A stretch of DNA of 64,000 nt. Source: Candidatus Buchananbacteria bacterium RIFCSPHIGHO2_02_FULL_39_17 (GTDB lineage Bacteria > Patescibacteriota > Patescibacteriia > Buchananbacterales > UBA6539). Below, piece after piece: positions 4,979 to 63,948 of the stretch (its first letter is position 1; the number at the start of each line of letters is the position of its first letter). Below the pieces are notes generated by a model, which was not told where the DNA came from, searched no databases, and was given only the letters and a program-made list of their open reading frames with translations. Where the stretch lies: contig MHII01000012.1 of NCBI GenBank assembly GCA_001817425.1, positions 77 through 64,076 on the forward strand. Direction: 5' to 3'. Both the position numbers and the translations under genes were made by a program.

Positions 4979-5428
4979 ATGATTAATTTTCAATTAGTTT
5001 TTAGAAATTATTTAGATCAGCACAAGCTTTTTAAACAGTTTGTCAAATTTTGTATTGTCGGTGGGACTTCGGCGGCATTTAATTTTTTGATTTACTATTC
5101 CGTGACGGAGTGGTTAGGGGTTTGGTACGTTTATTCTTCAATTGTTGCTTTTTTAATTTCTGCAGTATTTAATTTTTTGGCAAATAAAAACTGGACTTTT
5201 AGAAATACCGATATCGGCTGGGCGATGATAAACCAGTTAAGTAAATTCGCCACGGTGATGATCTCTGGCCTAATTATTAATACCGCCATTATTTATTTTT
5301 TAACTGATTGGTTCGGATTTGATTATCGTCTATCCTGGGTTTTTGCCACGGGCATAGTCACTTTTTGGAATTTTAGTTTCAATCGGTTTTGGACTTTTCG
5401 CCATCGTCAAAATTTATCCCTTGAATAA
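4979..5428 (+). CDS. GtrA family polysaccharide-synthesis membrane protein
   Basis: ~150 aa with 4 TM helices and the FVKFCIVGGTSAAFNFLIYY GtrA signature. Sits with GT2 and DUF2304 genes. Confidence 0.7.
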   Translation: MINFQLVFRNYLDQHKLFKQFVKFCIVGGTSAAFNFLIYYSVTEWLGVWYVYSSIVAFLISAVFNFLANKNWTFRNTDIGWAMINQLSKFATVMISGLIINTAIIYFLTDWFGFDYRLSWVFATGIVTFWNFSFNRFWTFRHRQNLSLE

Positions 5429-5526
5429 ATAAATTAGTTATTTTATAATTATAATAAAGGTTAAGATTAATACAGTGTTTGTTTAAAGGCATAAGATAAT
5501 ATTATACAAATTCATTTTGAGATTTT

Positions 5527-5560
5527 CCGCCCAAGGCGGATCCGCCTCTGGCGGAGAGGA
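5527..5560. mobile_element. GC-rich double-hairpin element, family 2, flanked by an 11-bp direct repeat
   Basis: ccgcccaaggcggatccgcctctggcggagagga lies between two copies of tttgagatttt (5516-5526 and 5561-5571). Confidence 0.65.
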
Positions 5561-6600: not shown

Positions 6601-7296
6601 ATGAATGTCCAGGTTGTTATTCCGGCTTACAATGAAGCAAAAACAATTTTTGAAATTATTAGAAAACTTAAAGATCAAGTCAGTCAAATCATTACGGTTG
6701 ATGACGGTTCAACAGATGACACCGGTGAATTAGCCAAACAGGCCGGAGCAAAAGTCTTAACTCATTTTTTAAATCGTGGCCAGGGTGCAGCACTGCAAAC
6801 TGGCATTTCTTTTGCTTTGGCGAATGGGGCGGAAATTATTGTCACTTTTGACGCCGATGGTCAGCATAATCCCGATGAGATTGATCAGGTCATTAAACCA
6901 TTATTGTTGGGTGAGGTAGATGTAGTGCTGGGTTCAAGATTTCTGGAATCAAGAATTAAGAATCAAGAATTAAGAATCAAGAATGTTCCTTTAATGAGGT
7001 TCGTTGTCTTGAAACTGGCGGCTTGGTTTACCCGGCTTTATACTGGTCTTAAAGTGACCGATGCCCATAATGGTTTTCGGGCTTTTTCGGCAAAAGCCGC
7101 CAGTTTAATTGAAATTAAGCAAGACGGGATGGCGCATGCTTCAGAAATTATTGAACAAATTAAAAAACAAGGCCTAAAATTCAAAGAAGTGCCGGTGGAA
7201 ATTAATTATACCAACTACTCATTGGAGAAGGGTCAAAAGTTAAGCAATTCCTGGAGGATTGTTTGGGATTTAATCATTAAGAGAATATCAAAATGA
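6601..7296 (+). CDS. Glycosyltransferase family 2 (dolichyl-phosphate mannose/glucose synthase-like)
   Basis: VVIPAYNEAKTI, DDGSTDDT and DADGQH motifs. Likely start is ATG 6601, just after the upstream TGA; the ORF track extends it to 6523. Contains an in-frame heptamer repeat tract at 6959-6998. Confidence 0.8.
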   Translation: MNVQVVIPAYNEAKTIFEIIRKLKDQVSQIITVDDGSTDDTGELAKQAGAKVLTHFLNRGQGAALQTGISFALANGAEIIVTFDADGQHNPDEIDQVIKPLLLGEVDVVLGSRFLESRIKNQELRIKNVPLMRFVVLKLAAWFTRLYTGLKVTDAHNGFRAFSAKAASLIEIKQDGMAHASEIIEQIKKQGLKFKEVPVEINYTNYSLEKGQKLSNSWRIVWDLIIKRISK

Positions 7297-10561: not shown

Positions 10562-10711
10562 ATTTTTATTATCTTAACATATTAAATTTATCACTTTTAA
10601 ATCTAAAAGTCCAATTGATTTTTAAAAAGAAATTTGCTAAAATTACTATATTATTTTTGTTTTTACATGATAAAACCTACAAGCTACTTTCTACAAGCTA
10701 CGAGCTAAAAT

Positions 10712-11860
10712 ATGAGAATTGCCATTATTACCCCCACTTTTCCGTCGTATGCCGGCGGCATTGGCAAGGTCGCGGCGTTTAACGCGCGAGAACTGAAAAA
10801 GCTTGGCCATCAGGTCACGGTTTTTACTCCTGACTATGAACCGGTTAAAGAAGAATTTACTGATTTAGAAATTAAGCGCATTAAGCCGCTTTTTAAATAT
10901 GGTAATGCCGCTTTTATTCCGGCTTTGGGTAAAATGCTCAAAGGTTTTGATATTATTCATCTCCATTATCCATTTTTCGGCGCCGCCGAAATTATTTGGC
11001 TCCATAATTCAAAATTCAAAATTCAAAATTCAAAATTGATTCTACATTACCATATGGATGTAGTCGGGCGCGGATGGTTAAAATTAATTTTCAAATTTCA
11101 CAATCAATTTATCTTGCCTAAAATTGTTAAAGCCGCGGATAAAATCATTTTCACTTCATTGGATTATAGTAAAAATTCAAATTTGGCAAAATGGTTGAAA
11201 AATCAGCCGTCAAAATTTGTGGCAATCCCCAACGGCGTTGACAGCCAAAATTTTTTACCTCAACTAAAAAGTCAAACCTTGCTGGAAAAATACCAGATTA
11301 ATCCTAGCGATAAAATTATCCTTTTTGTCGGCGGTTTAGACCAGGCGCATTATTTCAAAGGCATTGAATATTTACTCCAAGCGGTTTCGCGCCTGCGCCA
11401 AACCGCTTATTTTTGGAAATTAATCATTGTCGGCGAAGGTGATTTAAAAAATTATTATTCTGATTACGCCAATCAGTTAGGGCTTGATAATGAAGTAATA
11501 TTTAGTGGTTATGCTCCGGACGAGGATTTACCCAATTATTATAACTTGGCTGATGTTTGCGTTTTGCCCTCCATTGACAAATCTGAAGCTTTTGGCTTAG
11601 CTTTAATTGAGGCGATGGCGTGCGGAAAACCGGTCGTGGCAACAGATTTGGCCGGCGTGCGAAGCGTGGTTGAAGACGGGGTTAACGGGCTTTTGGCCCA
11701 GCCGAAAAATGCCGCTGATTTGGCGGCAAAAATTAATTATTTATTAATTAATCCCGAAATTGCCCAAGAGTTTGGCCACAACGGCCGGAAAAAAGTGGAA
11801 GAAGAGTATGAGTGGGGGAGGATCGGGAGAAAGCTAGATGAATTATATAAGAGTTTATAA
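10712..11860 (+). CDS. Glycosyltransferase family 4
   Basis: C-terminal EAFGLALIEAMACGKPVVATDLAGVRSVVEDGVNGLL (GT4 E-X7-E region). Contains an in-frame (attcaaa)x4 heptamer tract at 11006-11036, encoding NSKFKIQNSK. Confidence 0.8.
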   Translation: MRIAIITPTFPSYAGGIGKVAAFNARELKKLGHQVTVFTPDYEPVKEEFTDLEIKRIKPLFKYGNAAFIPALGKMLKGFDIIHLHYPFFGAAEIIWLHNSKFKIQNSKLILHYHMDVVGRGWLKLIFKFHNQFILPKIVKAADKIIFTSLDYSKNSNLAKWLKNQPSKFVAIPNGVDSQNFLPQLKSQTLLEKYQINPSDKIILFVGGLDQAHYFKGIEYLLQAVSRLRQTAYFWKLIIVGEGDLKNYYSDYANQLGLDNEVIFSGYAPDEDLPNYYNLADVCVLPSIDKSEAFGLALIEAMACGKPVVATDLAGVRSVVEDGVNGLLAQPKNAADLAAKINYLLINPEIAQEFGHNGRKKVEEEYEWGRIGRKLDELYKSL

Positions 11861-11866
11861 AAATTT

Positions 11867-11961
11867 CCCTCTTAAGATAAGAGGGGAGAGGGGAGTTATG
11901 AGTGTAAGTTTTAAAAAATTAATAACCCCATCCACCTCCCCCTTAATTTAAGGGGGGAGAG
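11867..11961. mobile_element. MITE-like derivative (~95 bp) of the DUF559 element, with hairpin termini and no ORF
   Basis: The left end ccctcttaagataagaggggagaggggagttatgag and right end taaccccatccacctcccccttaatttaaggggggagag closely match the two ends of the DUF559 element at 61224-61656. Only ~20 bp lies between them here. Confidence 0.6.
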
Positions 11962-15242: not shown

Positions 15243-15360
15243 TTTTTCATTTTATCAAAAATATTGAAATTTTGCTATAATATAAATAGAATTAAGAATC
15301 AAGAATCAAGAATCAAGAATTAAGGTCATTTTACTTTGATTTTTCATCTTTAATTTTAGC

Positions 15361-18180: not shown

Positions 18181-18497
18181 TGATAAAAATTTACCATAAA
18201 TTAGTTTGTGATAAGATTCCAGAGATTTGTAAAAAAGATGATGAAAAGCCGGTTTATTATGTTTTAAGCCAGAAAAGATTCAGAGAGGAATTAAAAAAGA
18301 AATTAATTGAAGAAACTGAAGAATTGACCCGAGCCAAGAAATCAGAATTAAAAAATGAAATTATTGATGTGTACGAAATTTTATTGAATTTAGCCAGAGT
18401 TAATCGCCTGAAATGGTCTACGATTGAAAAGCACCGTTTAGAAAAAAATAAACCCGACCTCAAAGCAAGCTTTGAGGTATCTGGGCGGGGTTTTTAG
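18180..18497 (+). CDS. MazG/HisE-like nucleoside triphosphate pyrophosphohydrolase
   Basis: N-terminal KLVCDKIPEI resembles the KLVRDKIPEI signature of MazG-like all-alpha NTP-PPases. The 3' end runs into a GC-rich hairpin element. Confidence 0.45.
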   Translation: MIKIYHKLVCDKIPEICKKDDEKPVYYVLSQKRFREELKKKLIEETEELTRAKKSELKNEIIDVYEILLNLARVNRLKWSTIEKHRLEKNKPDLKASFEVSGRGF

Positions 18498-18646
18498 GAG
18501 CAGAGTCCCGCCACGGCGGGACGTATTGTTTTACAAACTCTCCTCATCCTCGGTCGCTTTAGACGACCGAGATATTCGGAGAACACCTAATAAAAAACGA
18601 GGCGGATTTAGGAAACGTTATTTTTTGGAAAAAAGCCAAAAATAGT

Positions 18647-20341
18647 ATGGAGTTTATTTTAACCCCAGTGGAAATCTGGCAATTGGCAGTAATTAAACTG
18701 TTTTTTTATTTATTTTTGATTTTTGGCATCATTTTATTTTTTAAATGGCCTAAGCCATTTTTATTTGTTTTATTAATCTCTTTATTTTTGGGGGGCACTT
18801 ATTTATTTTTAATTTGGCAGGCGCAATTGCCTTGGTGGAGTTTGCAGGGGGATGAGATTTTTGTCACTTCGTTTCTCCAGAAGGTCGCTTCCGGCAATTT
18901 CTTTTCTGATTTTTTTTATAAAAATTTGCCGTTATTTTATCCGCCGCTTTATTTTTGGCTGGTTGGCGGCTTAGCCTCATTTTTTAAGTTAAACGGCATA
19001 CAAGCGGCGCAGTTGGGCGTGGCTTTAGTTTTATTTTTATCGCCATTTTTAGTTTATTTTTGCCAAAAAATTTACTGGCGGCTTTCCAAAAAAGAAGGCA
19101 TTCCGGCCTGGAAATTAGCCGTTTTGACCGCCTCGGTTTTTCTGGTTTGGGATTGGACGGCGGTGATTTTAAAACCTTATGAATTCATTTCGGCGATTTT
19201 AATTGTTTTTTGGTCAATTTTTTTATTCCAGGATTTATATTTTAAAACTTTATCGCGGCTAAAAATTATCATCTATGGTCTGGGCGGCGGGCTTTTATTT
19301 TTGACTTTCCATTTCTGGTTTTTTCCTTTGGCTTTAGCAATTTTATTATTTAAATTATTTGTTGATGTTTCACATCTTTATTTTTACAGCCGCCTGAGCT
19401 TGATTGTCCTTTTAATCTTAATCATTGCTTGGCCGTTTTTATACCCTTTGATTAATTCGCTTTGGCAAAACGGCGGACAGAATTTTCAGCCCTTATTTTT
19501 TATCCCCAGCGATTTAAATTTAAAATTGCCATTTTTTGATTTTTCCATTTTAGGTTTAATTTCAATTTTTGGTTTGCTTTCAATAATTTTTTATTGGTCA
19601 AAACCGGCGGCTAAGGCGATGGGCATTTTGCTTGGTTCAATATATTTTTGGCAATTTCTGAATTTAATCGGCATTATCTTTTGGCAGGTTTCCGTTTTGC
19701 CGGCAAAACCTTTTTTGTTTTTAGGTACGGTAGTTTTAGATCTTGCTTTTGGTTATGGCATTATTCAGTGGCTGGAATCAAAAGGCGAAAACAAAAATCT
19801 GCAGACAGCCGCTTTCATTATTGGCTGGTTAGTTTTGTCAAGTCAGCTTTTGGGTGGAAATTTTGTTGATGATCCAGTTGTCCAGAAACGTTTGGTTGAA
19901 ATAAAAAAACCAATTCGTGAGGAATTTACCGATTTAATTAGAGAGCTTAAAACCGTTTCTAATTTAAATAATTTGGTTTTACTTTCAAGCAATATTCCGG
20001 AGATTTCGGCTTATTTGCCCTTGAATTATTACCTTAGCTATAATATCCATTTTTCTCATCCGGCGGCGAATTTTATTGATCGCTATAATTTTGTCACTGA
20101 TTTAGCGGCCAGTCAGAGTCCGGATCAATTTTATCAAAAAATAAAAAAAGCGCCGTTTCAGCCAATTGATAATTTATTATTTTTAAAAGGCAATGGTTTT
20201 TATCCAATCAATTTTTGGTACGAAAACTATCCAACCGGCGGTATTGAGCAAGAAATTAGAATTCCGTCTGACTTGATTAGTGAACAATATTTTGCTAAAA
20301 TTTTTGAAGACAAATACTTTGTTTTTTATAAGGTAAAATAA
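18647..20341 (+). CDS. Large polytopic membrane protein, GT-C-like
   Basis: More than 10 TM helices, a GDE motif in the first loop (WWSLQGDEIFVTSF), and a C-terminal soluble domain. Confidence 0.4.
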   Translation: MEFILTPVEIWQLAVIKLFFYLFLIFGIILFFKWPKPFLFVLLISLFLGGTYLFLIWQAQLPWWSLQGDEIFVTSFLQKVASGNFFSDFFYKNLPLFYPPLYFWLVGGLASFFKLNGIQAAQLGVALVLFLSPFLVYFCQKIYWRLSKKEGIPAWKLAVLTASVFLVWDWTAVILKPYEFISAILIVFWSIFLFQDLYFKTLSRLKIIIYGLGGGLLFLTFHFWFFPLALAILLFKLFVDVSHLYFYSRLSLIVLLILIIAWPFLYPLINSLWQNGGQNFQPLFFIPSDLNLKLPFFDFSILGLISIFGLLSIIFYWSKPAAKAMGILLGSIYFWQFLNLIGIIFWQVSVLPAKPFLFLGTVVLDLAFGYGIIQWLESKGENKNLQTAAFIIGWLVLSSQLLGGNFVDDPVVQKRLVEIKKPIREEFTDLIRELKTVSNLNNLVLLSSNIPEISAYLPLNYYLSYNIHFSHPAANFIDRYNFVTDLAASQSPDQFYQKIKKAPFQPIDNLLFLKGNGFYPINFWYENYPTGGIEQEIRIPSDLISEQYFAKIFEDKYFVFYKVK

Positions 20342-20428
20342 GTCAAAAATCAAAAATCAAAAGGCAAAAGTCAAAAGTTTAAGTCAAAATTCAAAAGCTG
20401 TAGTTTAATTACTTTTAACTTTTGAATT
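20342..20428. repeat. Partial copy of the caaaag-rich ~100-bp intergenic repeat that also flanks rmlA
   Basis: caaaaggcaaaagtcaaaag...acttttaacttttgaatt matches the start and end of the 22957-23059 arm. It ends ~6 bp before the HIT-gene ATG. Confidence 0.55.
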
Positions 20429-22098: not shown

Positions 22099-22953
22099 AT
22101 GGCCAATCAACGGAAAATCCTTATCCTTGGCGCAAACGGCATGCTGGGCCACGATCTGGCTGAAATTTTTTTTGATCAAAAACCAATTCTTTGGGATATG
22201 CCAAATCTTGATATTACTGATGAATTTGCGGTCAAACAAAAATTAGCTGATTTAATGCCTTCTTTAGTGATTAATGCCGCTGCCTATACTGACGTTGATG
22301 GTGCTCAAAATCAGCCAGATTTGGCGTTTAAGGTCAATGCCGACGCCATTGGCTACTTGGCAGTTGCCTGTCAGCAATTAGGGGCGATTTTGGTGCATTA
22401 CAGCACTGAATACGTTTTTTCCGGTAACAAGGATACTGGTTATCAAGAAGACGACAAAACTGATCCGTTAAATATTTATGGCCAGTCTAAAGCCAAAGGT
22501 GAAGAGATTTTAAAACAAAATTGTGAAATGTTTTATTTAATTCGTTCAAGCTGGCTTTACGGCCGTTCACCCCAAGTCGGCAAGCCGCGCGGCTTGAATT
22601 TCGTCCAAACTATGCTAAAATTGGCAGGTGAGGGTAAAGAGATTAATGTTGTTTCCGACCAGTTTGGCAAGCCGACTTATACTTTAGACTTAGCTAAAAA
22701 AACCCGGGAAATTATTGAAACTCAAAAGCCCTGCGGCATTTATCATGCGGTTAACGAAGGTGTTTGCAGCTGGTATGAATTTGCCAAAAAAATTTTTGAA
22801 ATAAAAAATATTTCCGCAAATTTAAATTCAATTAATTCAGATCAATATCCTTTGCCTACGCCACGGCCAAAATACAGCATTTTAGTTAACACCAAATTAG
22901 AGCCGTTGCGGAAGTGGGACGAGGCGTTGCGAGATTACCTACGGCAAAGTTAA
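22099..22953 (+). CDS. rmlD: dTDP-4-dehydrorhamnose reductase
   Basis: KILILGANGMLGHDL, YGQSKAKGEE, ~284 aa. Confidence 0.85.
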   Translation: MANQRKILILGANGMLGHDLAEIFFDQKPILWDMPNLDITDEFAVKQKLADLMPSLVINAAAYTDVDGAQNQPDLAFKVNADAIGYLAVACQQLGAILVHYSTEYVFSGNKDTGYQEDDKTDPLNIYGQSKAKGEEILKQNCEMFYLIRSSWLYGRSPQVGKPRGLNFVQTMLKLAGEGKEINVVSDQFGKPTYTLDLAKKTREIIETQKPCGIYHAVNEGVCSWYEFAKKIFEIKNISANLNSINSDQYPLPTPRPKYSILVNTKLEPLRKWDEALRDYLRQS

Positions 22954-22956
22954 AAG

Positions 22957-23059
22957 TCAAAAGGCAAAAGTCAAAATTGCAATTCAAAATTCAAAAGTAA
23001 AAAGTAATAATTTTGATTTTTAACTTGAACTTTTAATTTTTAACTTTTAACTTTTGAAT
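22957..23059. repeat. Left arm of the 103-bp inverted repeat enclosing rmlA
   Basis: Its reverse complement matches 23824-23926 at 102 of 103 positions. Built from caaaag/acttttaa units. Confidence 0.85.
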
Positions 23060-23064
23060 TTTTT

Positions 23065-23823: not shown

Positions 23824-23926
23824 ATTCAAAAGTTAAAAGTTAAAAATTAAAAGTTCAAGTTAAAAGTCAAAATTATTACTTTTTACTTTTGAATTTTGAA
23901 TTGCAATTTTGACTTTTGCCTTTTGA
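23824..23926. repeat. Right arm of the 103-bp inverted repeat enclosing rmlA
   Basis: Reverse complement of 22957-23059 with one mismatch. Confidence 0.85.
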
Positions 23927-23983
23927 ATTTTAACTTTGATGCTTATTTATAATTTGGAATTTATTTGAGATTTAATATTTCAA

Positions 23984-31497: not shown

Positions 31498-31545
31498 CTC
31501 CCCCTTAAATTAAGGGGGGGGGTGAGAGGGGGTTAAATTTCAAAA
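31498..31545. repeat. Hairpin element related to the DUF559-element termini
   Basis: ctcccccttaaattaaggggggg followed by gagagggggtta, cf. 11936-11959 and 61634-61656. Confidence 0.5.
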
Positions 31546-32645: not shown

Positions 32646-32684
32646 CTACAAGCTACAAGCTACAAGCTACAAGCTACAAGCTAA
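32646..32684. repeat. Tandem heptamer (ctacaag)x5 immediately upstream of the pyrG start
   Basis: ctacaagctacaagctacaagctacaagctacaagcta ends 4 bp before the pyrG ATG. The same ctacaagct motif lies upstream of GT4 (10686-10705) and at the edges of the in-frame palindromic elements in murD and fpg. Confidence 0.8.
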
Positions 32685-35659: not shown

Positions 35660-35865
35660 ATTTTTACATTTTTTTTAATTTTAAAAGTGAATAAAGTTTC
35701 GGTGGGCAGGGCATCAGACCCTGCCCACCGACCAAAGGAGTATCCTCCTTTGGAATCCTCTTATGATTAGTGTTCGCTCGCTACCGCTCGCTCACAGATT
35801 TTATTATTGACTCCGCCTCATCCCTGCGGCAGAGACCGCAGGGTATTCGGCGGATTTGCATAATA

Positions 35866-35903
35866 AAATAAGCGAAGTCTTTATCCTTCGCTTATTTTAT
35901 TAT
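35866..35903. terminator. Bidirectional terminator hairpin in the convergent gap
   Basis: aaataagcgaag-tctttatc-cttcgcttattt stem-loop, with T-runs on both sides. Confidence 0.5.
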
Positions 35904-38485: not shown

Positions 38486-38516
38486 CTCCGCCAGAGGCGG
38501 ACTCGCCTCTGGCGAG
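38486..38516. repeat. GC-rich double-hairpin element, family 2, inverted copy
   Basis: ctccgccagaggcggactcgcctctggcgag. Its reverse complement aligns with 5527-5560, sharing an identical second hairpin and a covarying first stem. Confidence 0.7.
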
Positions 38517-46271: not shown

Positions 46272-49007
46272 ATGAATAAAGAAGAAAGTAAAAAACAGAT
46301 TAAAAGGCTAGTGGAAAAATATCAAAATTTTACCCCAAGCCAAAAAAGAGAATGCAATGAATCAATGATTTGCAAAGATTTTGTTTTGCCTCTTTTTCAG
46401 GCGCTTGGCTGGGACGTTTATAATAATTTTGGCCACGAAGTGGCTTCGGAAGCGCAAATTTCAGGTAAAAGAGCCGATTATGCTTTTTATGTTAATGACG
46501 TGATAAAATTTTTTGTTGAAGCAAAAAAACCGTCGGTTGATTTACGGGAAGAAAAATTAGCCGAGCAGGCGGTATTTTATGCTTGGCACAAAAGCGTGCC
46601 TTGGGCAATATTGACGAATTTTGAAGTGATTAAAGTTTTTAACGCCGAATGGGACGAACCGGATGTGGAAAGAAGTCTAATTTTTGAAATCAATTACAAA
46701 GATTTTTTGCAAGACGAAAAATTGTGGTGGCTTTCCAAAGAATCAATGGAAAAAGGCGAGTTAGATCAATATGCGCAGGAAAATTTTAAAAAACCGAAAA
46801 GAGAACCAGTTGATAAGCAATTAGCTAACGATTTAGTCAGATGGCGGACAGCGTTATTTAGCGATCTTAGTCAATGGAATCGCGATAAAAATTTGGGTGA
46901 AAAAAATATTGCCAAGGCCGTCCAACAGTTATTGGACAGCTTTATTTTTATTCGCACGACTGAAGACAGAAAAATTGAAGGGGAACGGCTTCGGGAACTA
47001 GTCAGAAATTGGGAGGAAGAAAAAAAGACAATTAATTTAGGAGATGAGCTAAAAAAGTTATTCCAGCACTATAATGACGGTTATGATAGCAGATTATTTG
47101 AATTATCAGTCTGCGATAAATTGGAATATGAAGACAGCTTGTTTGCCGATGTAATCAAGCAACTATATAAAAATAAAAAAGGCATCCGTTATGATTTTGC
47201 GTCAATTAATGCTGATGTTTTAGGCAGTATTTACGAACAATATTTGGGACAAATTCAGGAAAGCGAAAAAAATAAAAGTAAAAGAAAATCTCAAGGGATT
47301 TATTATACGCCAAGATACATTGTTGATTATATTGTCAAAAATACTTTAGGCGAATTATTGAAAGGCAAGTCTGGCTTTGAGGCTTCAAAGATTAAAATAT
47401 TAGATCCGGCCTGCGGGTCAGGGTCATTTTTGATTAAAGCTTTTGAAGTTATAGATAATCATATTCAGAGAGAAAATAACCAGATAAACGCGCAAAAATT
47501 CACCAATTACGCCAGAAAGGTCGCGATTTTAACGGCAAATATCTATGGCGTTGACTTGGATGAAGAGGCCGTGGAAATTGCTCAATTAAATTTATTGCTA
47601 AAAGTTCTTGAACAAAGAGAGAAATTGCCAAATTTAGGACATAATATTGAAAACGGCAATTCTTTAATCTCTGGTGAACCAAAAGAATTGGAGAAATATT
47701 TTGGCAAGGGCTGGAAAGCCAAAAAGCCGTTTAACTGGGAAGAAAAATTTTCCGGTGTATTTAAGCAAGGCGGATTTGATGTGATTATTGGTAATCCGCC
47801 TTATATTGATTCGGAGGAGATGGTTAAAAATGATAAAAATTTTAGAATTTATTGCACTGAATTTTATGAAGGTGCTAAGGGGAATTGGGATATTTTTTGT
47901 ATATTTGTTGAAAAAGCATTAAACCTGTTGAGGGTAGGAGGTTATTTAGGAATGATTATTCCTAATAAGATACTATCTGCCGATTATGCTGATTCCGTTA
48001 GAAAAATGATAGAAGAATATTCAGTAGTTTCTATAAATGATTATTCAGGTATAAAAGTTTTTGGCGCCAGTGTCTATCCTATCGTTTTAATAATACAGAA
48101 ATTAAAACCTATACAAGATCATAAAATTATTGTCAATTCTTATACTATAGATAAGGAAGTTATTAAAATAGAGGATAGTAAAAAAATTAGTCAAACGATG
48201 CTGAAAGAATACAAAAATAGTTGGTCTCCTATATTTAATTATTCTGAGAATGAAAATTTTATTGATAGAATTACAAAAAGTAGTCAGAGATTAAAAGAAA
48301 TTTGTGATATTCACGGTGCCGCTACAGTAAATGAGGCCTATGAATTAAAAAAGATAGTCAAAAATTTAAAAGATGAAGATAAAGATGAATACTTTAAATT
48401 TATTAACACTGGAACTATTGATAGATATACCTCTCTGTGGGATCACCAAAAAACCCAATATATCAAAGCAAGCTATCTTAGGCCAGTAGTTATAAAGAAA
48501 AAATTACGTGAATTATTGCCTAACAGATATTTAGATTCAACAAAAAGTAAATTGATTGTAGCTGGTATGACAAAAAAGATGGAGTGTTTTTTTGACGAGC
48601 GTGGAGAATATTTAGCAGGTAAATCCACTACAATAATCGAAAACAATAAATTAGATCTTAAATTTATTTTAGCATTATTAAATAGTAAGTTGTTGACATT
48701 TATTTTTAAAAATATTTTTAAATCGCTATCTTTGCAAGGAGGGTATCTAAGGATAGGCGCCCCTCAAATTAAAGAGTTGCCAGTCATTATGGCGAATAAA
48801 AATGAAATGTCGGTAATTATAAAATTAACTGATAAAATTTTCATTTTAAACAAAAAATTTCAAACAATAGACCCTATTTTATACAAGGAAGAATATGAAG
48901 AAAAGAAAAAAGAAATTGAAAAAACCGACCGAGAAATTGACCAAAAAGTTTATGAGCTTTACGGCTTGATGGCGGAGGAGATTAAGATCGTGGAAGGAAA
49001 AAAATAA
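46272..49007 (+). CDS. MmeI-family type IIL/IIG restriction-modification enzyme (PD-ExK nuclease, gamma-class N6-adenine methyltransferase and TRD fused)
   Basis: The N-terminus ADYAFY...FVEAKKP gives a D-X10-E-X-K nuclease motif. Methyltransferase motif I is DPACGSGSFL and motif IV is GNPPY. Length is 911 aa; MmeI is about 919. The C-terminal half (~47850-48900) is visibly more AT-rich than the N-terminal half. Confidence 0.75.
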   Translation: MNKEESKKQIKRLVEKYQNFTPSQKRECNESMICKDFVLPLFQALGWDVYNNFGHEVASEAQISGKRADYAFYVNDVIKFFVEAKKPSVDLREEKLAEQAVFYAWHKSVPWAILTNFEVIKVFNAEWDEPDVERSLIFEINYKDFLQDEKLWWLSKESMEKGELDQYAQENFKKPKREPVDKQLANDLVRWRTALFSDLSQWNRDKNLGEKNIAKAVQQLLDSFIFIRTTEDRKIEGERLRELVRNWEEEKKTINLGDELKKLFQHYNDGYDSRLFELSVCDKLEYEDSLFADVIKQLYKNKKGIRYDFASINADVLGSIYEQYLGQIQESEKNKSKRKSQGIYYTPRYIVDYIVKNTLGELLKGKSGFEASKIKILDPACGSGSFLIKAFEVIDNHIQRENNQINAQKFTNYARKVAILTANIYGVDLDEEAVEIAQLNLLLKVLEQREKLPNLGHNIENGNSLISGEPKELEKYFGKGWKAKKPFNWEEKFSGVFKQGGFDVIIGNPPYIDSEEMVKNDKNFRIYCTEFYEGAKGNWDIFCIFVEKALNLLRVGGYLGMIIPNKILSADYADSVRKMIEEYSVVSINDYSGIKVFGASVYPIVLIIQKLKPIQDHKIIVNSYTIDKEVIKIEDSKKISQTMLKEYKNSWSPIFNYSENENFIDRITKSSQRLKEICDIHGAATVNEAYELKKIVKNLKDEDKDEYFKFINTGTIDRYTSLWDHQKTQYIKASYLRPVVIKKKLRELLPNRYLDSTKSKLIVAGMTKKMECFFDERGEYLAGKSTTIIENNKLDLKFILALLNSKLLTFIFKNIFKSLSLQGGYLRIGAPQIKELPVIMANKNEMSVIIKLTDKIFILNKKFQTIDPILYKEEYEEKKKEIEKTDREIDQKVYELYGLMAEEIKIVEGKK

Positions 49008-49011
49008 AAAT

Positions 49012-49554
49012 ATGAAACCGCAGGAAAACAATTTTGCTTATATTGACGGAGCCAATTTGCATAATGCTATTAAAGAATTAGGCTGGCAGCTCGACTATGT
49101 CAGGTTTAGAATTTGGCTTTCCGAAAAGTACGGTGTGAAAAGGGTTTACATTTTTATTGGTCTCATTGCTAAATATAAGGATTTATATACTTATTTACAG
49201 GAATCAGGTTTTACCCTTATCTTTAAAGAAGTAGTGTATGACGGCGGTGGGAAACCAAAAGGGAATTGTGACGCTGATTTAGTATTGCAGGCGGCGCGTG
49301 ATACTTATGAAAATAATTTTGAAAAGGTAATTATTGTCGCCAGTGATGGTGATTATGCTAGCTTAGTAAAGTTTTTATTAGAAAAATGGAAAATTTTAGC
49401 CTTGTTGTCGCCGAGTGAGGAAAAGAAATGCTCAATCCTTTTAAAAAGAACGGGAGTTAAAATCGCTTACCTTAAAGATCAGCAATCTATTTTAAGTTAT
49501 GGAAAAGAAAAAGCCCCCGGTAGGGACGGAACCCCACAAGGGTCTTTTTCGTAA
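49012..49554 (+). CDS. NYN-domain (LabA-like) nuclease
   Basis: YIDGANL, DADLV and ASDGDY acidic motifs in NYN order. 180 aa. Confidence 0.65.
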   Translation: MKPQENNFAYIDGANLHNAIKELGWQLDYVRFRIWLSEKYGVKRVYIFIGLIAKYKDLYTYLQESGFTLIFKEVVYDGGGKPKGNCDADLVLQAARDTYENNFEKVIIVASDGDYASLVKFLLEKWKILALLSPSEEKKCSILLKRTGVKIAYLKDQQSILSYGKEKAPGRDGTPQGSFS

Positions 49555-49596: not shown

Positions 49597-51111
49597 ATGA
49601 ATTTCACGGGTAGAAAAGTGACGGTCATGGGTTTAGGGCTCCACGGTGGTGGAGTCTCTTGCGCTAACTGGCTGATAAAGCACGGCGCTAAAGTGACGGT
49701 GACTGATTTGAAAACCAAAGAAGAGCTTAAGCCATCTTTAGATAAGTTAGCGATCAAACGATCAAGCGATCAAACGATCAAGTTAGTGCTTGGATATCAC
49801 CGTGAAAATGATTTTAGAAATGCTGATCTAATTGTTCAAAACCCGGGTGTGCCAAGGGAATCAAAATATTTGGCAATTGCCAAAAAATCTGGCGTGCCAA
49901 TTGAAAATGAAGCCAGCCTTTTTTTTAAATATTGTCCGGCAAAAATTATCGGCGTCACAGGAACGCGTGGCAAATCAACCACGTCAAGCTTAATTTATCA
50001 ACTTCTAAAAGTTAAAAGCTATCCCGACGTAAAGTCGGGATCCCGACCGAAGCGTCGGGACAAACTACAAGCTCGTAAAGTCTGGCTGGCCGGACTGCCC
50101 CAAAAGCCGATGTTAGAAATTTTAGATCAAATTAAGCCTAATGATTTGGTGGTTTTAGAGCTTTCCAGCTGGCAATTAGAAATTTTAGGCGAACAAAAAT
50201 TAAGTCCGCAAATCGCGGTTCTGACTAATATTTATCCCGATCATTTAAATCGCTATTTGGGTATGGCTGATTACGTTAAAGCTAAAATCAACATTTTTCA
50301 GTGGCAAAATAAAAATGATTTTGTCGTTTTGAATTTAGATAATTTTGAAACAAAAAAACTTGGCGGAAAAGTCAGGGCCAAAAGATTTTTGTTTTCCAAA
50401 AAATATTTTGCCGAACAAAACGGCAGCTTTATTAAAAATAAACAAATTTTTTTCCGAAAAGACGGCAAAACTTACAAACTTACTAACTTATCAACTTATA
50501 AACTTATTGGCGAGCACAATTTAGAAAATTTTTTGGCCGCGATCACGGTTGCCGGAATTTTTGGTGTTAAACCAAAAGAAATAACGGCGGCTTTGAATAA
50601 GTTTAAGGGTTTGCCGGGGCGAATTGAGTTAATCAGGGAAAAAAACGGCGTAAAATATATTAATGACACAACCGCGACCACGCCTGATGCCACCATGGCC
50701 GCTCTAAAAATATTTTTAGAGCGGCAAATCCCAAATTCTAAATCCCAAACCCTAAGTAAATTCAAAATTCAAAATTCAAGATTCAAAATTATTCTGATAG
50801 CTGGAGGAGCGTCAAAAAATATTCCTATTCAAAAATATCAAGAGTTAGCCGCAATGATAAAAAAAACTTGTAAGGCCGTGATTCTATTTGAGGGGGAAGG
50901 GAGCGATCAGATGGCCAAAGATTTAAAGGCCATAAAATTTAGAGAATTAGTGACCAATGTTTTAGGGATGTCTTCAGCGGTTGGCATTGCTAATAATTTT
51001 TCGCAAACAGGCGATATCATTTTACTCTCTCCGTCTTCAGCTTCGTTTGGTTTGTTTATTAATGAATTTGATCAGGGTGATCAATTTAATAAGATAGTTT
51101 CTGATATTTAA
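49597..51111 (+). CDS. murD: UDP-N-acetylmuramoylalanine--D-glutamate ligase
   Basis: KVTVMGLGLHGGGVSCANWL, the P-loop GVTGTRGKSTTSSL, and the Mur ligase C-domain. Three in-frame repeat insertions: 49745-49778, 50011-50071 and 50757-50793. Confidence 0.85.
   Translation: MNFTGRKVTVMGLGLHGGGVSCANWLIKHGAKVTVTDLKTKEELKPSLDKLAIKRSSDQTIKLVLGYHRENDFRNADLIVQNPGVPRESKYLAIAKKSGVPIENEASLFFKYCPAKIIGVTGTRGKSTTSSLIYQLLKVKSYPDVKSGSRPKRRDKLQARKVWLAGLPQKPMLEILDQIKPNDLVVLELSSWQLEILGEQKLSPQIAVLTNIYPDHLNRYLGMADYVKAKINIFQWQNKNDFVVLNLDNFETKKLGGKVRAKRFLFSKKYFAEQNGSFIKNKQIFFRKDGKTYKLTNLSTYKLIGEHNLENFLAAITVAGIFGVKPKEITAALNKFKGLPGRIELIREKNGVKYINDTTATTPDATMAALKIFLERQIPNSKSQTLSKFKIQNSRFKIILIAGGASKNIPIQKYQELAAMIKKTCKAVILFEGEGSDQMAKDLKAIKFRELVTNVLGMSSAVGIANNFSQTGDIILLSPSSASFGLFINEFDQGDQFNKIVSDI
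50011..50071. mobile_element. GC-rich double-hairpin element, family 1, inserted in frame in murD
   Basis: aaaagctatcccgacgtaaagtcgggatcccgaccgaagcgtcgggacaaactacaagct has two hairpins sharing the tcccgac/gtcggga stem and ctacaagct at its edges. It encodes KSYPDVKSGSRPKRRDKLQA, which is absent from canonical MurD. Confidence 0.7.
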
Positions 51112-53442: not shown

Positions 53443-53628
53443 TCAAATTAAACGGGAAGAAATAGAAGATAACTAAAATAGATTAAAAAATTCCAAATTC
53501 TAAATCCTAAATTATAAATAATATTAAAATTCAAATTTACAAATTTAAAAAAGTTTTATTCGTTTGGATTTTAGTTATTGGGATTTATTTAGGATTTAGT
53601 GCTTAGAATTTAGGATTTATCTTTATTT
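53443..53628. repeat. AT-rich palindromic element (ctaaatcc-unit inverted repeats) upstream of the patatin gene
   Basis: aattctaaatcctaaa...tttaggatttagtgcttagaatttaggattta. Shares its 3' ~30 bp with the element at 54538-54678. Both end ~5 bp before an ATG. Confidence 0.7.
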
Positions 53629-54537: not shown

Positions 54538-54678
54538 CTTAAAATTCTAAATTCTAAATCCGAAATCCTAAACAAATTCCAAATTCTAAACTCCAATTTT
54601 TTAAACAGTTTGTAATTTGTGATTTTGGATATTGTGATTTACTTAGAATTTAGTGCTTAGAATTTAGGATTTAATATT
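54538..54678. repeat. AT-rich palindromic element upstream of murC, paralogous to 53443-53628
   Basis: aaattctaaattctaaatccgaaatcctaaa...cttagaatttagtgcttagaatttaggattta. Confidence 0.7.
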
Positions 54679-56076
54679 ATGTTTGTTGATTTGGCAAAAA
54701 TTAAAAGGATCTATTTTATTGGTATTAAAGGGGTGGCAATGACTGGTTTGGCGGTGATTTGCCAAAAAATGGGTAAAGAAATTTTTGGTTCTGATGTGGC
54801 AGAAAAATTTATTACGGATAAAATTTTAGAAAAAAATCAGATTAAATCTTTTGAAAATTTTTCGATAACTAATTTAAATTGCCAGCCGGATTTAGTGGTT
54901 TTGGGCACATCTTTTAGTGATGAAAACCCTGAAGTGATTGAGGCAAAAAAGAGGAAAATAAAAATAATTTTTGATTCAGAGCTTCGGGGGCTATTAAGCC
55001 AAAAAAAAGAAACTATTGCGGTTGCGGGCATTCACGGCAAGACAACGACTACCGCCATGCTGGCTTATTTATTTTCAAAAGCCGGACTAAAACCGAGTTA
55101 TTTAATTGGTACCGGCGCGGTGCCTGATTTAGGCGGCAATTCAGATTGGGGGGTGGGGGATTATTTTATTGTTGAGGGCGATGAATATAGCCGAAGCAAA
55201 TACGATACAACGCCGAAATTTTTAGACTTGGAGCCAAAAATCAGCGTGATTACTAATATTGAATGGGAGCATGTTGATATTTATCCTGATTTGTCAGCAG
55301 TTGAAAAAGCTTTCACCGCCTTAGTTGAAAAAACTAAAGATTTAATTGTTGTCTGCGGCGATTGGCCTTCAGTCAAAAAAATTATTAAAAATAGCGATAA
55401 AAAAGTTGTGACTTATGGCTTGGGGGCGGATAATCTCTGGCAAGCGTTTGATCTTAAGCAACAATCTGACGGCACAATTTTTAAAATTAGAAAAGAAGGC
55501 GTTCGCTTAGGGGAGTTTAAAATTAAACTTTTTGGAGAGCATAATGCTTTAAACGCTCTTTCAGCCATTATTGTTGGTTTAGAGTTGGGCCTAGAGTTAG
55601 AACAAATTAAGCAGATTTTGAAAGATTTTTCCGGAGCGGAAAGGCGTTTTGATGTTTTAGAAAATAAGGGTGTCATTTTCGTTGATGATTATGGTCATCA
55701 CCCAAGTGAAATAAAAACCACGCTTAAAGCCGTTCGCCAACGTTATCCTAAAAATCAAATTTGGTGCGTATTTCAGCCCCACATGGCATCACGAACAAAA
55801 GCATTCTTAGCTGAATTCGCCCGGAGTTTTAGCGAAGTTGATCAAGTGATTTTTGCTGATATTTTTGCTTCAGCCAGAGAAAAATCTTTAGCGATTACGG
55901 CCAGAGATTTAACCAATGAAACCAAAAAATACCAGACTTCAGCGATTTACGGCGGCAGTTTGGATGAAATTACCAAATATTTAAAAAATAATTTAAAGCC
56001 GGGAATGATTTTAGTCACCATGGGCGCGGGGGATGTGTATAAAATTAGAGATAAACTAATTAATTTTAAATTTTGA
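54679..56076 (+). CDS. murC: UDP-N-acetylmuramate--L-alanine ligase
   Basis: IYFIGIKGVAMTGLAV, the P-loop GIHGKTTTTAMLA, and the DDYGHHP region. Confidence 0.9.
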   Translation: MFVDLAKIKRIYFIGIKGVAMTGLAVICQKMGKEIFGSDVAEKFITDKILEKNQIKSFENFSITNLNCQPDLVVLGTSFSDENPEVIEAKKRKIKIIFDSELRGLLSQKKETIAVAGIHGKTTTTAMLAYLFSKAGLKPSYLIGTGAVPDLGGNSDWGVGDYFIVEGDEYSRSKYDTTPKFLDLEPKISVITNIEWEHVDIYPDLSAVEKAFTALVEKTKDLIVVCGDWPSVKKIIKNSDKKVVTYGLGADNLWQAFDLKQQSDGTIFKIRKEGVRLGEFKIKLFGEHNALNALSAIIVGLELGLELEQIKQILKDFSGAERRFDVLENKGVIFVDDYGHHPSEIKTTLKAVRQRYPKNQIWCVFQPHMASRTKAFLAEFARSFSEVDQVIFADIFASAREKSLAITARDLTNETKKYQTSAIYGGSLDEITKYLKNNLKPGMILVTMGAGDVYKIRDKLINFKF

Positions 56077-56176
56077 AATTCGAATTTTGATTCAATATCT
56101 TAATATTTTAATTTTTAAAAATTCAGATATTCAAAATTGATTCAAAATTCAAAATTAAAAATTCAGATTTTTACGT

Positions 56177-60951: not shown

Positions 60952-61249
60952 TATGGAAAATTTAGAAGAGAGAATCCAAAAAATTGAAGAGCGCAATCTG
61001 CGGGTGGAAGCCGATAAAACTTGGGAACAGAGCTGGACACGACGCGCTTTATTAGCGATTTTTAGCTATGTTGCCGTTGGGGCATATCTTCAGGCGATTC
61101 AAATCCCGCGGCCGTGGATTAACGCCATTGTGCCAGCCGCGGCGTTTATGATTCAGACCTTAACCTTGCCGTTTTTCAAAAAACTTTGGCTAAAATTTTT
61201 TTCTAAAAATGATTTTTTAAATCCCCCTCTTAAAGGTAAGAGGGGTTAG
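60941..61249 (+). CDS. Small hypothetical membrane protein
   Basis: ~100 aa with 2 TM helices. Overlaps the secA stop. Its last codons run into the left hairpin of the DUF559 element. Confidence 0.3.
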   Translation: MENNMENLEERIQKIEERNLRVEADKTWEQSWTRRALLAIFSYVAVGAYLQAIQIPRPWINAIVPAAAFMIQTLTLPFFKKLWLKFFSKNDFLNPPLKGKRG

Positions 61250-61656
61250 GGGAGTTATGAAGTATAATTATCATTATAATAACCATAAATTAAAAACTTT
61301 AAGACGAAACTTACGACAGAACCAAACTGATGCCAAAAAATTAATTTGGTCAAAACTTAGGAATAAACAATTAAATGATTTGAAATTTTATAGACAATAC
61401 AGTATTGGCTCGTATATTTTAGATTTTTATTGTCCTAAAAAGAGATTAGCGATAGAGATTGACGGCGGACAGCATAACGAAACAATTAATCTAAAAAAAG
61501 ATAATGTGCGATCAGAATATTTAAAACATCAGGACGTTAAGGTTATAAGATTTTAGAATAATGATATTATAAATAATTTAGAAGGAGTATTTGAAAAAAT
61601 TAAAGAAGCAGTATCGTTAATAACCCCCTCCATCTCCCCCTTATATTAAGGGGGAG
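61224..61656 (+). mobile_element. Mini mobile element with hairpin termini carrying a DUF559 (Vsr-like endonuclease-fold) gene
   Basis: The left end cccctcttaaaggtaagaggggttaggggagttATG and right end taaccccctccatctcccccttatattaagggggag are palindromic. The same two ends occur back to back at 11867-11961 without the ORF. Confidence 0.6.
61257..61649 (+). pseudogene. DUF559 endonuclease-domain gene interrupted by an in-frame TAG at the conserved RFW motif
   Basis: YRQYSIGSYILDFYCPKKRLAIEIDGGQHNE...DVKVIRF*NNDIINNLEGVFEKIKEAVSL. DUF559 proteins normally read RFWN followed by a tail, so TAG replaces the Trp codon. Confidence 0.55.
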
Positions 61657-61699
61657 AATAATAATAGGCGGCAAAATATTTTAATTTTGAAATTTAATA

Positions 61700-62958: not shown

Positions 62959-63948
62959 ATGCCTGAATTACCGGAAGTGGAAACTCTACGCCGCGAATTA
63001 AATTCAGCGATTAAAGGTAAAACCATTAAATCAGCAGAAATCAAATGGCCGAAAATGGTTAAGCCATTAACGCCGCTTGAGTTTGCCAAAAAAATAAAAG
63101 GCAAAAAAATCACGGCTATTAATCGCCGCGCCAAGGTTTTGATTTTATTTTTATCTGATGGTAATTTTTTACTCATCCATTTGAAACTCACAGGCCAACT
63201 CATTTATCAACCTAAAAAGCTACAAGCTATCCCGACGTTGCCGATGCGAAGATCGGCATTCCGACTTTACGTCGGAACAAGTCGGGATCCCGACCGAAGC
63301 GTCGGGACAAGCTATAAGCTAATCATCGGTGGTCACCCGCTTCCGCTTCGCTTCAGCGAGGCGAGTCCGCAAAAAGGCGGCACCGAAAATCTGCCCAATA
63401 AATTTACTCATATTATTATTACTTTTAACGATAGTTCAAAATTATTTTTTAATGATTTGCGAAAATTTGGCTGGATGCGGATAGTTAATAAGTTAGAAGT
63501 TGATAAGTTGTTAAGTGAGTACGGGGTTGAGCCTTTGACAAAAGAATTTAATTTGAAAAAATTTAAAGAAATATTAAAGAGATATCCGAACCGGAAAATT
63601 AAGCAGATTTTAATGGACCAAAGTTTAATCGCCGGGATTGGCAATATTTATTGCGACGAAAGTTGTTTTGGCGCGAAAATCTTGCCCACCAGAATCATTC
63701 AAACTTTAAAGGAAGAAGAAATTAAATTACTTTATCGCTGTATCCCAAAACTTTTAAAATTTGCCATTTCAAAAAAAGGTACATCAGCCAATACTTATAT
63801 CCAGCTTGACGGTAAGCCAGGCGGTATGGAGCCATATTTAAAAGTTTACGCTCGAAAAGGGGAGAAGTGCAAAAGGTGCGCCGGTGAAATTAAGAGAATT
63901 AAATTAAACGGCCGCGGCACTCATTTTTGTCCAAATTGCCAAAAATAA
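62959..63948 (+). CDS. mutM: Formamidopyrimidine-DNA glycosylase (Fpg/MutM)
   Basis: N-terminal MPELPEVE with the catalytic Pro2 and Glu3, an H2TH region, and a C-terminal zinc finger CKRC...CPNC. Carries ~170 bp of in-frame GC-rich palindromic insertions at 63216-63385. Confidence 0.85.
   Translation: MPELPEVETLRRELNSAIKGKTIKSAEIKWPKMVKPLTPLEFAKKIKGKKITAINRRAKVLILFLSDGNFLLIHLKLTGQLIYQPKKLQAIPTLPMRRSAFRLYVGTSRDPDRSVGTSYKLIIGGHPLPLRFSEASPQKGGTENLPNKFTHIIITFNDSSKLFFNDLRKFGWMRIVNKLEVDKLLSEYGVEPLTKEFNLKKFKEILKRYPNRKIKQILMDQSLIAGIGNIYCDESCFGAKILPTRIIQTLKEEEIKLLYRCIPKLLKFAISKKGTSANTYIQLDGKPGGMEPYLKVYARKGEKCKRCAGEIKRIKLNGRGTHFCPNCQK
63216..63320. mobile_element. GC-rich hairpin element, family 1, expanded copy, inserted in frame in fpg
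   Basis: aaaagctacaagctatcccgacg...gtcgggatcccgaccgaagcgtcgggacaagctataagct. Its 3' 40 bp are nearly identical to the murD copy and its edges carry ctacaagct. Confidence 0.7.
63349..63385. repeat. Family-2-like double hairpin inside the fpg coding sequence
   Basis: cgcttcagcgaggcgagtccgcaaaaaggcgg follows the ggcgag-tccgcNNNNNggcgg layout of 38486-38516 and 5527-5560. Confidence 0.5.

Follow-up and report, generated by a model that had tools for sequence, protein, structure and literature searches.

A short double hairpin read in frame in murD and fpg, and its relatives across the Patescibacteria

Introduction

Rickettsia palindromic elements (RPEs) are palindromic repeats of ~100-150 bp in Rickettsia (PMC10969869). 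They lie in frame in many unrelated housekeeping open reading frames (ORFs), adding peptide segments, and also in non-coding and RNA-gene contexts; they come without an associated transposase or known mechanism. The same behaviour is met in a 64,000-nucleotide stretch of DNA from Candidatus Buchananbacteria bacterium RIFCSPHIGHO2_02_FULL_39_17 (positions 77 to 64,076 of contig MHII01000012.1; hereafter, the window): a 39-nt double hairpin lies in frame in murD, and a longer, nested form of it lies in frame in fpg. Both segments are rather probably copies of a Patescibacteria-wide family of miniature palindromic insertions that is tolerated in frame and resembles both RPEs and the repetitive extragenic palindromes (REPs).

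In-frame insertion in unrelated genes is common to RPEs and the present element; sequence family, size, and Rickettsia host are not. RPEs are confined to Rickettsia and keep a conserved peptide per family, whereas the element described here, from Candidatus Buchananbacteria and other Patescibacteria, is 36-39 nt long, has invariant stems and free loops, and is used in all three phases and both orientations. Moreover, it spans a superphylum, nests in its own loops, and is linked to heptamer arrays and to tRNA/GIY-YIG cassettes.

REPs and their doublets (REPINs) are short, GC-rich palindromes, dispersed, multi-copy, and long-lived (PMC3116915, PMC3337134). The present element likewise is a dispersed, multi-copy, and long-lived doublet of short palindromes, which in two loci (L086 and L087) forms a perfect inverted doublet. 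However, REPs are extragenic, whereas about one third of the present copies lie inside ORFs; the conserved GTAG head of REPs is absent here; and no REP-associated tyrosine transposase (RAYT) gene flanked by the same repeat was found in the loci around the copies or in the window. The closest analogue in behaviour is the RPE; in architecture it is the REPIN.

A more distant analogue is the palindromic amphipathic repeat coding element (PARCEL), a palindromic coding repeat in ORFs of diverse, distantly related microbes (PMC2996958). Like the present element, PARCELs are palindromic, lie within ORFs of distantly related microbes, and can be read in either orientation. However, they are longer intragenic tandem repeats that form amphipathic modules of surface proteins, whereas the double hairpin is a short insertion that stands alone apart from occasional nesting, and is found in housekeeping enzymes as well as outside coding DNA.

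Free-standing homing endonuclease genes of the GIY-YIG type are represented by seg/mob of phage T4, and 'collaborative homing' joins a free-standing endonuclease with an intron. The arrangement described below is similar in that a small GIY-YIG ORF lies by a conserved target (a tRNA gene), with the hairpin splitting TTAG^CTCAG in the adjacent duplicated fragment. It differs in that the cassettes have no intron and duplicate or replace the tRNA 5' part. Moreover, most hairpin copies, including both in the window, have no GIY-YIG gene nearby.

The murD copy

The murD ORF and its insertion comprise these features:

49597-51111, + strand: murD ORF, 504 aa, host of copy 1 (ORF list; homologue domains)
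50011-50021, + strand: left heptamer remnant gt TAAAAG CTA^, the 5' flank of the murD hairpin (read by deleting the hairpin)
50022-50060, no strand assigned: 39-nt double hairpin TCCCGAC-GTAAA-GTCGGGA / TCCCGAC-CGAAGC-GTCGGGA (sequence, fold, pattern match)
50061-50073, + strand: right heptamer remnant ^CAAA CTACAAG CT, the 3' flank of the murD hairpin (sequence)

Homologues of the host protein carry the domains PF21799, PF08245, and PF02875 and are named UDP-N-acetylmuramoyl-L-alanine--D-glutamate ligase. An identical protein is on record for metagenome-assembled genomes of Candidatus Buchananbacteria, in several assemblies.

The double hairpin consists of two abutting perfect 7-bp hairpins that together occupy 13 codons, with the in-frame product (Y)PDVKSGSRPKRR(D). 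An earlier note on this DNA had pointed to a GC-rich double hairpin in frame in murD with a second copy in fpg; the sequence is as that note described it, and chance would give essentially none. The 20-mer TCCCGACCGAAGCGTCGGGA is found in murD and in fpg, once each, and nowhere else in the window, and so is the 14-mer palindrome GTCGGGATCCCGAC; shuffles give expectations of 0.00 and 0.05, respectively. The murD segment folds at -26.7 kcal/mol (z -4.5), and none of 200 shuffles did as well.

The earlier note placed the element at 61 bp with 'ctacaagct' as its edge. The hairpin is indeed there, but the element proper is shorter: the 60-nt (20-aa) insertion comprises the 39-nt hairpin plus 21 nt of three degenerate CTACAAG heptamers. 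The supposed edge is not part of the element, at murD or at fpg, but the remnant of a (CTACAAG)n heptamer tandem array, hairpin-free examples of which lie at 10677-10707 and 32646-32683. Deleting the murD hairpin brings TAAAAG CTACAAA CTACAAG back in phase, which fixes the insertion site as CTA^CAA.

In an alignment of 22 MurD orthologues, the insertion follows the P-loop helix (..SLIYxLLK) and precedes the KVWLAG strand. The AlphaFold2 model (mean predicted local distance difference test score, pLDDT, 82) brackets it with a helix at residues 126-141 and a strand at 162-165; residues 142-158 have pLDDT <50 and no secondary structure. Alignment and model agree with the earlier placement of 20 extra residues just after the P-loop helix. 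At the hairpin point, basal relatives among the aligned orthologues have nothing added, those of the window's clade have 8-35 extra residues, and several of these insertions are visibly translated heptamers.

The fpg copy and its nested hairpin

The second copy has a more elaborate structure:

62959-63948, + strand: fpg ORF, 329 aa, host of copy 2 (ORF list; Fpg Pfam domains on homologues)
63213-63229, + strand: left heptamer array TAAAAAG CTACAAG CTA^ (sequence; lag-7 analysis)
63230-63307, no strand assigned: 78-nt composite, outer element TCCCGAC-GT[..]CAA-GTCGGGA / TCCCGAC-CGAAGC-GTCGGGA (sequence, hairpin scan)
63239-63277, no strand assigned: nested 39-nt double hairpin TGCCGAT-GCGAAG-ATCGGCA / TTCCGAC-TTTAC-GTCGGAA (hairpin scan and reading of the sequence)
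63308-63324, + strand: right heptamer array ^CAAG CTATAAG CTAATC (sequence; lag-7 analysis)

The expanded copy with extra nested hairpins, reported earlier to lie in frame at 63216-63320, is present and in frame, but its extent is now set at the 78 nt of 63230-63307. Once the nested insert is removed, a single loop base sets the outer element apart from the murD copy. The insert itself lies in opposite orientation in loop 1 (GT^CAA) of the outer element, with its stem changes compensated, and the lengths add up exactly (9 + 39 + 10 + 20 = 78 nt). The composite is a nested insertion: a diverged, inverted 39-nt copy inside the first loop.

Deleting the whole element restores CTACAAG CTA^CAAG CTATAAG CTAATC, so that the site is CTA^CAA as in murD; lag-7 identity is 0.74 across the removed element. 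The segment folds at -52 kcal/mol (z -5.9), again unmatched in 200 shuffles. Fpg orthologues are mostly 287-294 aa long, against 329 aa in the window, and the point from HLKLTGQLIYQP to VVGGHPQKGG, where the insertion lies, is hypervariable: aligned orthologues have 0-50 extra residues there.

A family across the Patescibacteria

Relatives were sought with the pattern GTCGGGATCCCGAC-N4-8-GTCGGGA, whose 21 exactly specified bases inflate the apparent conservation of the stems. At least 119 stretches matched, from ~98 species-representative genomes. Among the matches listed, 114 complete copies were delimited, and on these rest the copy counts in other genomes given here; bona fide copies occur in ~92 genomes. 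Their hosts include Nomura-, Gottesman-, Roizman-, Adler-, Terry-, Falkow-, Jorgensen-, Taylor-, Zambryski-, Doudna-, Magasanik-, Ryan-, Vogel- and Tagabacteria, together with the Paceibacterota. The family therefore spans the Patescibacteria, or candidate phyla radiation (CPR), instead of belonging to the lineage of the window as first supposed. A few matches in GC-rich Streptomyces, Chloroflexia, and deltaproteobacterial DNA are incomplete and chance-like, and three Bacteroidetes and Kryptoniota matches have a different outer structure.

In each unit, two 7-bp hairpins abut; their stems (TCCCGAC/GTCGGGA) hardly vary, their loops are free, and the usual length of the whole is 36 or 39 nt. Among the 114 copies there are length peaks of 16 copies at 36 nt, 24 at 39 nt, and 11 at 45 nt, and length subfamilies go with genomes: the 36-nt form in CAZKWN01 and CAITSA01, the 45-nt form in JBBUAS01. 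Loops often are GNRA-like or of C(GAA)G types, and among non-canonical hairpins both outer pairs are compensated in 25 of 49. Nested copies recur in L016, L021, and L038, and the perfect inverted doublets are 40 nt (L086) and 36 nt (L087) long. The exact 39-mer of the window is the commonest form; it is present in five other species genomes (L013, L045, L052, L060, and L109), in unrelated contexts that include a DUF763-like ORF, a tRNA cassette, the region upstream of 16S rRNA, and heptamer arrays.

Rfam 15 gave no match at gathering score anywhere in the window, and only chance-level matches (E >2) at both sites. A full-text search of the searchable literature found no description of the 14-mer, or of a palindromic, RPE-type, or miniature inverted-repeat transposable element (MITE) in CPR/Patescibacteria; papers on GIY-YIG genes with tRNAs were covered too and yielded none. 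The double-hairpin family is probably undescribed, as the earlier note had guessed. It would be the smallest in-frame 'coding' repeat of its kind, and a sequence marker for a whole superphylum.

Copies inside genes

A copy was counted as ORF-internal if it had at least 40 stop-free codons on either side. By this measure 36 of the 114 copies are ORF-internal, and the ORF stays open in every one of them, which bears out the proposal of an RPE-like palindrome family in frame in unrelated housekeeping genes. Hosts identified by Pfam are SMC, SecA, LeuRS, GlyRS, GatB, RpoA, PepA (leucyl aminopeptidase), MurB, and Def (peptide deformylase); LepA, PriA-like, and ComEC-like hosts were identified by eye. 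The two orientations are represented 22:14 and all three phases are used, giving peptides such as VPTEVGIPTEVG, SRRKVGIPTEASG, and PDVKSGSRPKRRD.

The anticipated bias toward multiples of three inside genes is present: 30 of the 36 ORF-internal copies have such lengths, compared with 39 of the 78 elsewhere (Fisher p = 8.5e-4). In the other six, the frame is open only with the element present; probably, their delimited boundaries are off by a few bases. For five copies, deletion would 'restore' an ORF, but the translations are junk. No out-of-frame interruption of a real gene was seen among the 114 copies. By reading of its own sequence, the canonical 39-mer is free of stops in five of six frames (the exception reads ACG TAA through the GTAAA loop). 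Since the common lengths are multiples of three and most frames are open, genic copies would simply be translated and survive.

The streamlined, tiny genomes of Patescibacteria tolerate a dispersed palindrome inside essential murD, secA, rpoA, and aminoacyl-tRNA synthetase genes. This tolerance bears on the origin of the many lineage-specific insertions in Patescibacteria proteins.

Heptamer arrays as target sites

Two arrays of the murD/fpg type lie in the window without a hairpin:

10677-10707, + strand: degenerate (CTACAAG)n array just upstream of the ATG at 10712 (repeat search, Tandem Repeats Finder (TRF))
32646-32683, + strand: (CTACAAG)x5.4 array, 5 nt upstream of the ATG at 32689 (repeat search, TRF)

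The second of these is the same target-type repeat in unoccupied form. Among all copies, ~10% lie in period-7 arrays whose phase continues over the removed element, compared with 0.3-0.5% of random positions. This amounts to a 20-30-fold enrichment, specific to lag 7.

Judged from alignments, repeats, and the structural model, the murD and fpg sites are old hypervariable loops of heptamer repeats on the protein surface, hot spots with an occupancy that is either ancient or recurrent. The orthologue alignment proposed in the earlier note did map the insertions to variable loops; an ancient lineage-specific loop, the alternative that the note raised, describes the site in part but not the family. 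Gene calling, alignment trimming, and phylogenomics with CPR marker genes can all be misled by hairpins and heptamer arrays alike.

tRNA fragments, GIY-YIG genes, and leaders

Outside ORFs, a recurrent context is the truncated tRNA 5' fragment, which holds ~10% of the copies, inserted exactly between tRNA positions 10/11 (TTAG^CTCAG) or 12/13. After the hairpin come the remainder of the D-arm; a ~15-nt spacer or a small GIY-YIG ORF (PF01541); and an intact tRNA of the same kind. The element-bearing fragments have no 3' half.

Clustering of the ORFs around the 114 copies yielded GIY-YIG as the sole recurrently adjacent family (10 loci, six of them within 57 bp), where random placement would account for roughly 0.5 of the 10 ORFs. 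In the six copies with a GIY-YIG ORF 0-57 bp away, the order always is [tRNA nt 1-10]-hairpin-[D-arm piece]-GIY-YIG-[intact tRNA], and in several cassettes the stop codon of the GIY-YIG ORF is T8-A9-G10 of the tRNA itself. TTAG-hairpin-CTCA was matched at 21 sites in a metagenome scan, and at six distinct ones a GIY-YIG ATG follows after 7-50 nt; hairpins upstream of GIY-YIG starts mostly have one orientation. In L124 (minus strand, ~360-840), a tRNA-Val is split at TTAG^CTCAG by hairpin-GIY-YIG-tRNA-Val-hairpin, with its 3' part after the second hairpin. These exact tRNA D-loop junctions beside GIY-YIG genes provide a concrete, testable lead to a mobility mechanism.

In L015, L018, L026, L045, L072, L077, L124-L130, and L140, small GIY-YIG genes stand between a duplicated tRNA 5' fragment and the tRNA gene directly downstream; the arrangement appears to be a tRNA-targeting cassette common in Patescibacteria. 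In L141 (9323-9700), an insert that contains a second tRNA-Thr interrupts the anticodon loop of a tRNA-Thr.

A second non-coding context is the rplJ leader. Four divergent genomes (L078, L079, L101, and L105) have the element at AGACAG[hp]NAGG, always in one orientation; a promoter-like TTGACA shortly precedes it, and rplJ follows 100-250 nt further on. The leader is uninterrupted in L097 (AGACAG^CAGG) and L062, a precise presence/absence difference. In L109, the 16S rRNA starts 22 nt after a copy.

The flanks of oriented copies have G at -1 in 64% and C at +1 in 48%, with AG^CT as the commonest pair: the element prefers relaxed or AG^CT-like targets. No target-site duplication was seen at these flanks, and the tRNA, rplJ-leader, and heptamer junctions are exact.

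Insertion, function, or relic

Membership in one family, compatibility with in-frame translation, nesting, exact junctions, target contexts, and breadth carry the reading favoured here with some reserve, namely that the murD and fpg segments belong to a dispersed family of miniature insertions. We infer that such copies spread as DNA, by transposition or homing. Several results weigh against it. Empty-site alleles were not found: all members of the clusters at ≥90% identity keep the MurD and Fpg insertions, and a metagenome scan for the murD flanks with 0-30-nt filler gave no match. Diverged hairpins occupy orthologous sites: a double hairpin of 60 nt, again at CTA^CAA within CTACAAG repeats, in a MurD orthologue (P0002, 72% identical); other hairpins at the same site of an Fpg orthologue (P0132, 73% identical); and, in Def, the element in the same loop of several orthologues, at differing divergence, with other insertions in the rest. 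Many copies therefore look old, not recently moved. Sequences are distinct in 107 of the 114 copies, mainly in the loops, with stems constant; such a pattern is expected under stem selection or exact-stem ascertainment, not from recent bursts. ORF clustering around the 114 copies brought out no transposase family that would point to a parent insertion sequence, and no target-site duplication was seen, so that the element does not class with MITEs derived from insertion sequences. RAYT-like genes were found in three loci, but they are flanked by unrelated palindromes, which does not support mobilisation by RAYT; no GIY-YIG ORF was found in the window. Finally, a scan of IMG/VR viral contigs with the element pattern gave 0 matches, leaving no obvious vector between lineages. 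The main rival takes the double hairpin for a functional nucleic-acid module: an RNA or extruded-DNA binding or processing site for a conserved Patescibacteria factor, selected at leaders and at rRNA and tRNA precursors, with coding-region copies as by-products or exaptations. It is unlikely. In its favour, stems are essentially invariant over very distant lineages while loops vary freely, although this invariance is partly built into the search pattern. The compensated double changes, the GNRA-like and C(GAA)G loops, the fixed position and orientation in four rplJ leaders, the copy before 16S rRNA, and the mostly uniform orientation 7-50 nt upstream of GIY-YIG starts all suit such a module. 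However, the rplJ leader of L097 and L062 works without the element; copies nest in one another; ORF-internal copies occur in both orientations, in all phases, and at non-homologous positions of unrelated proteins; and no Rfam family matches.

The age of many copies could also mean that all are relics of one early expansion or a few old bursts, vertically inherited as slowly decaying loops, with nothing moving now. The diverged hairpins in orthologues at 72-75% identity, the absence of presence/absence polymorphism within the species (in the ≥90% clusters and the murD-flank scan), and loops unique in almost every copy fit this account, which is nevertheless distinctly improbable. Exact 39-mers are common to different candidate phyla at unrelated loci; the two window copies are one base apart over their shared 39 nt in host loops that are otherwise unrelated; subfamilies cluster by genome (CAZKWN01, CAITSA01, JBBUAS01); and neutral decay would not preserve perfect 7-bp stems over such distances. 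An RNA-level intervening sequence, excised from transcripts like an intron and harmless in genes for that reason, would suit the tRNA-like D-loops and structured leaders, and the compact, stable fold would be in keeping with a processing signal. It is very unlikely: an excised sequence needs no frame, whereas all 36 ORF-internal copies are open and 30 are multiples of three, and in the tRNA fragments that bear the element the 3' half is missing, with an intact tRNA coming next. That no real gene is frameshifted argues the same way; with length and phase constrained by the host frame, intron-like excision was rejected. An assembly chimera, an adaptor, or a palindrome generated locally might be suspected from the BamHI site (GGATCC) at the centre and the metagenome-assembly source. 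However, MurD and Fpg proteins with the insertions are on 7 and 13 independent contigs, respectively, from several sources; the family is present in ~90 independently assembled genomes; and shuffles put the chance expectation near zero. Artefact or chance is effectively refuted.

How the element might spread

If the segments are insertions, the element would enter as DNA, without target-site duplication, into pre-existing relaxed sequence; in the window, the targets would be (CTACAAG)n arrays that already formed variable surface loops of MurD and Fpg. In fpg, a second, diverged copy would later have landed in loop 1 of the first, and elements in general grow through the nesting of more hairpins in a loop. 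Purifying selection would spare copies that keep the frame, since translation of these would only add a short, disordered, hydrophilic loop, whereas genic copies that shift the frame would be removed.

The small GIY-YIG nuclease gene is a tentative candidate for the mobiliser. A bolder scheme, which we consider unlikely, makes the double hairpin the cis-acting end of unrecognised mobile cassettes that are driven by GIY-YIG nucleases and home to tRNA D-loops at TTAG^CTCAG. Such cassettes would come with a substitute 5' part for the tRNA (or, as in L124, with an entire tRNA), and the solo 36-39-nt hairpins in genes, leaders, and arrays would be their non-autonomous derivatives or insertion scars. 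If true, nuclease and hairpin together would make up a new mobility mechanism, at work throughout the Patescibacteria radiation. A version with hairpins at both cassette ends is not general: the second hairpin or tRNA 3' remnant is present in L124 and L142 and absent from ten others.

RAYTs were searched for by phmmer in the loci around the copies and in the window. RAYT-like Y1 transposase ORFs were found in L053 (7047-7757), L076 (5521-6168), and L065 (3-602), and none in the window by the same search. They match Pfam Y1_Tnp, with REP-associated tyrosine transposase as the best NCBIfam entry, below cutoff. Their own palindromes lie on both sides of the genes (AAAGTACACCT-CGT-AGGTGTACTTT and TGTCAAGG-ACTC-CCTTGACA). 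Patescibacteria may also have classical REP-RAYT systems.

Two further ideas were discarded. Origin of the heptamer arrays as 7-bp target-site duplications fails because copies outside arrays show no duplication, and a DNA-uptake sequence would require a far higher density than two copies in 64 kb.

Other insertions and repeats

The proteins that carry the element have other insertions as well. Two lie in the window:

50726-50790, + strand: second in-frame murD insertion, of AAATYCH heptamers (IPNSKSQTLSKFKIQNSRFKI; repeat families, TRF, alignment, model)
63340-63369, + strand: separate 30-nt hairpin-like in-frame fpg insertion (LPLRFSEASP; Fpg alignment, sequence)

The murD insertion has TRF periods of 7 and 14, coincides with an alignment column of variable length, and covers residues 377-394 with pLDDT <50. 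The LPLRFSEASP segment is common, with amino-acid changes, to the Fpg orthologues P0133, P0134, P0138, and P0141; it looks like an older insertion that now evolves as protein. Many Def proteins of Nomurabacteria and Paceibacterota have an N-terminal KPARNASHSDAGG-like segment (alignment columns ~10-40; duplicated in P0322), which looks like another translated palindromic repeat.

Period-7 arrays of differing heptamers (GAATCAA, AATTCAA, AAGTCAA, CTACAAG, AAATTCT, and others) saturate the window. Examples are 6946-6984, 11006-11037, 15288-15324, 20340-20397, 22946-23063, 23828-23939, 32646-32683, 53488-53619, 54542-54673, and 56062-56165. Most are intergenic or lie in 5' leaders right before start codons; some are translated in ORFs, and translated-heptamer peptides (SEIRNQKSE and LQATSYK, for example) are found in MurD, Fpg, and Def orthologues.

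The window also holds two copies of a second double-hairpin family:

5526-5555, no strand assigned: double hairpin TCCGCC-CAA-GGCGGA / TCCGCC-TCT-GGCGGA (repeat and hairpin scans)
38487-38516, no strand assigned: second copy of the TCCGCC-type double hairpin, intergenic (repeat and hairpin scans)

The first, set among TTTGAGA heptamers, precedes the ATG at 5577 by 22 nt and has GGATCC at its centre. This TCCGCC/GGCGGA family shares the architecture and the GGATCC centre with the main element and occurs in other loci as well (L111 at ~5280-5300, for example). Another hairpin family, CCCCCTTA-N3-TAAGGGGG with a CCCTCTTA variant, is intergenic at 11938-11956, 31500-31518, and 61633-61657 (also at 11867-11885 and 61224-61245); the Fpg orthologue P0179 seems to have a translated copy (SPPSLPPLNLPLVKGE).

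Two GC-rich intergenic blocks, 18450-18580 and 35695-35900, have three or four strong hairpins each and no significant Rfam family; either structured RNAs so far without annotation or clustered hairpin elements may account for them. Directly upstream of murD (46272-49554) lie ORFs of 911 aa and 180 aa, the longer of which was picked out by eye as a candidate fused type II restriction/N6-adenine methyltransferase (NPPY motif).

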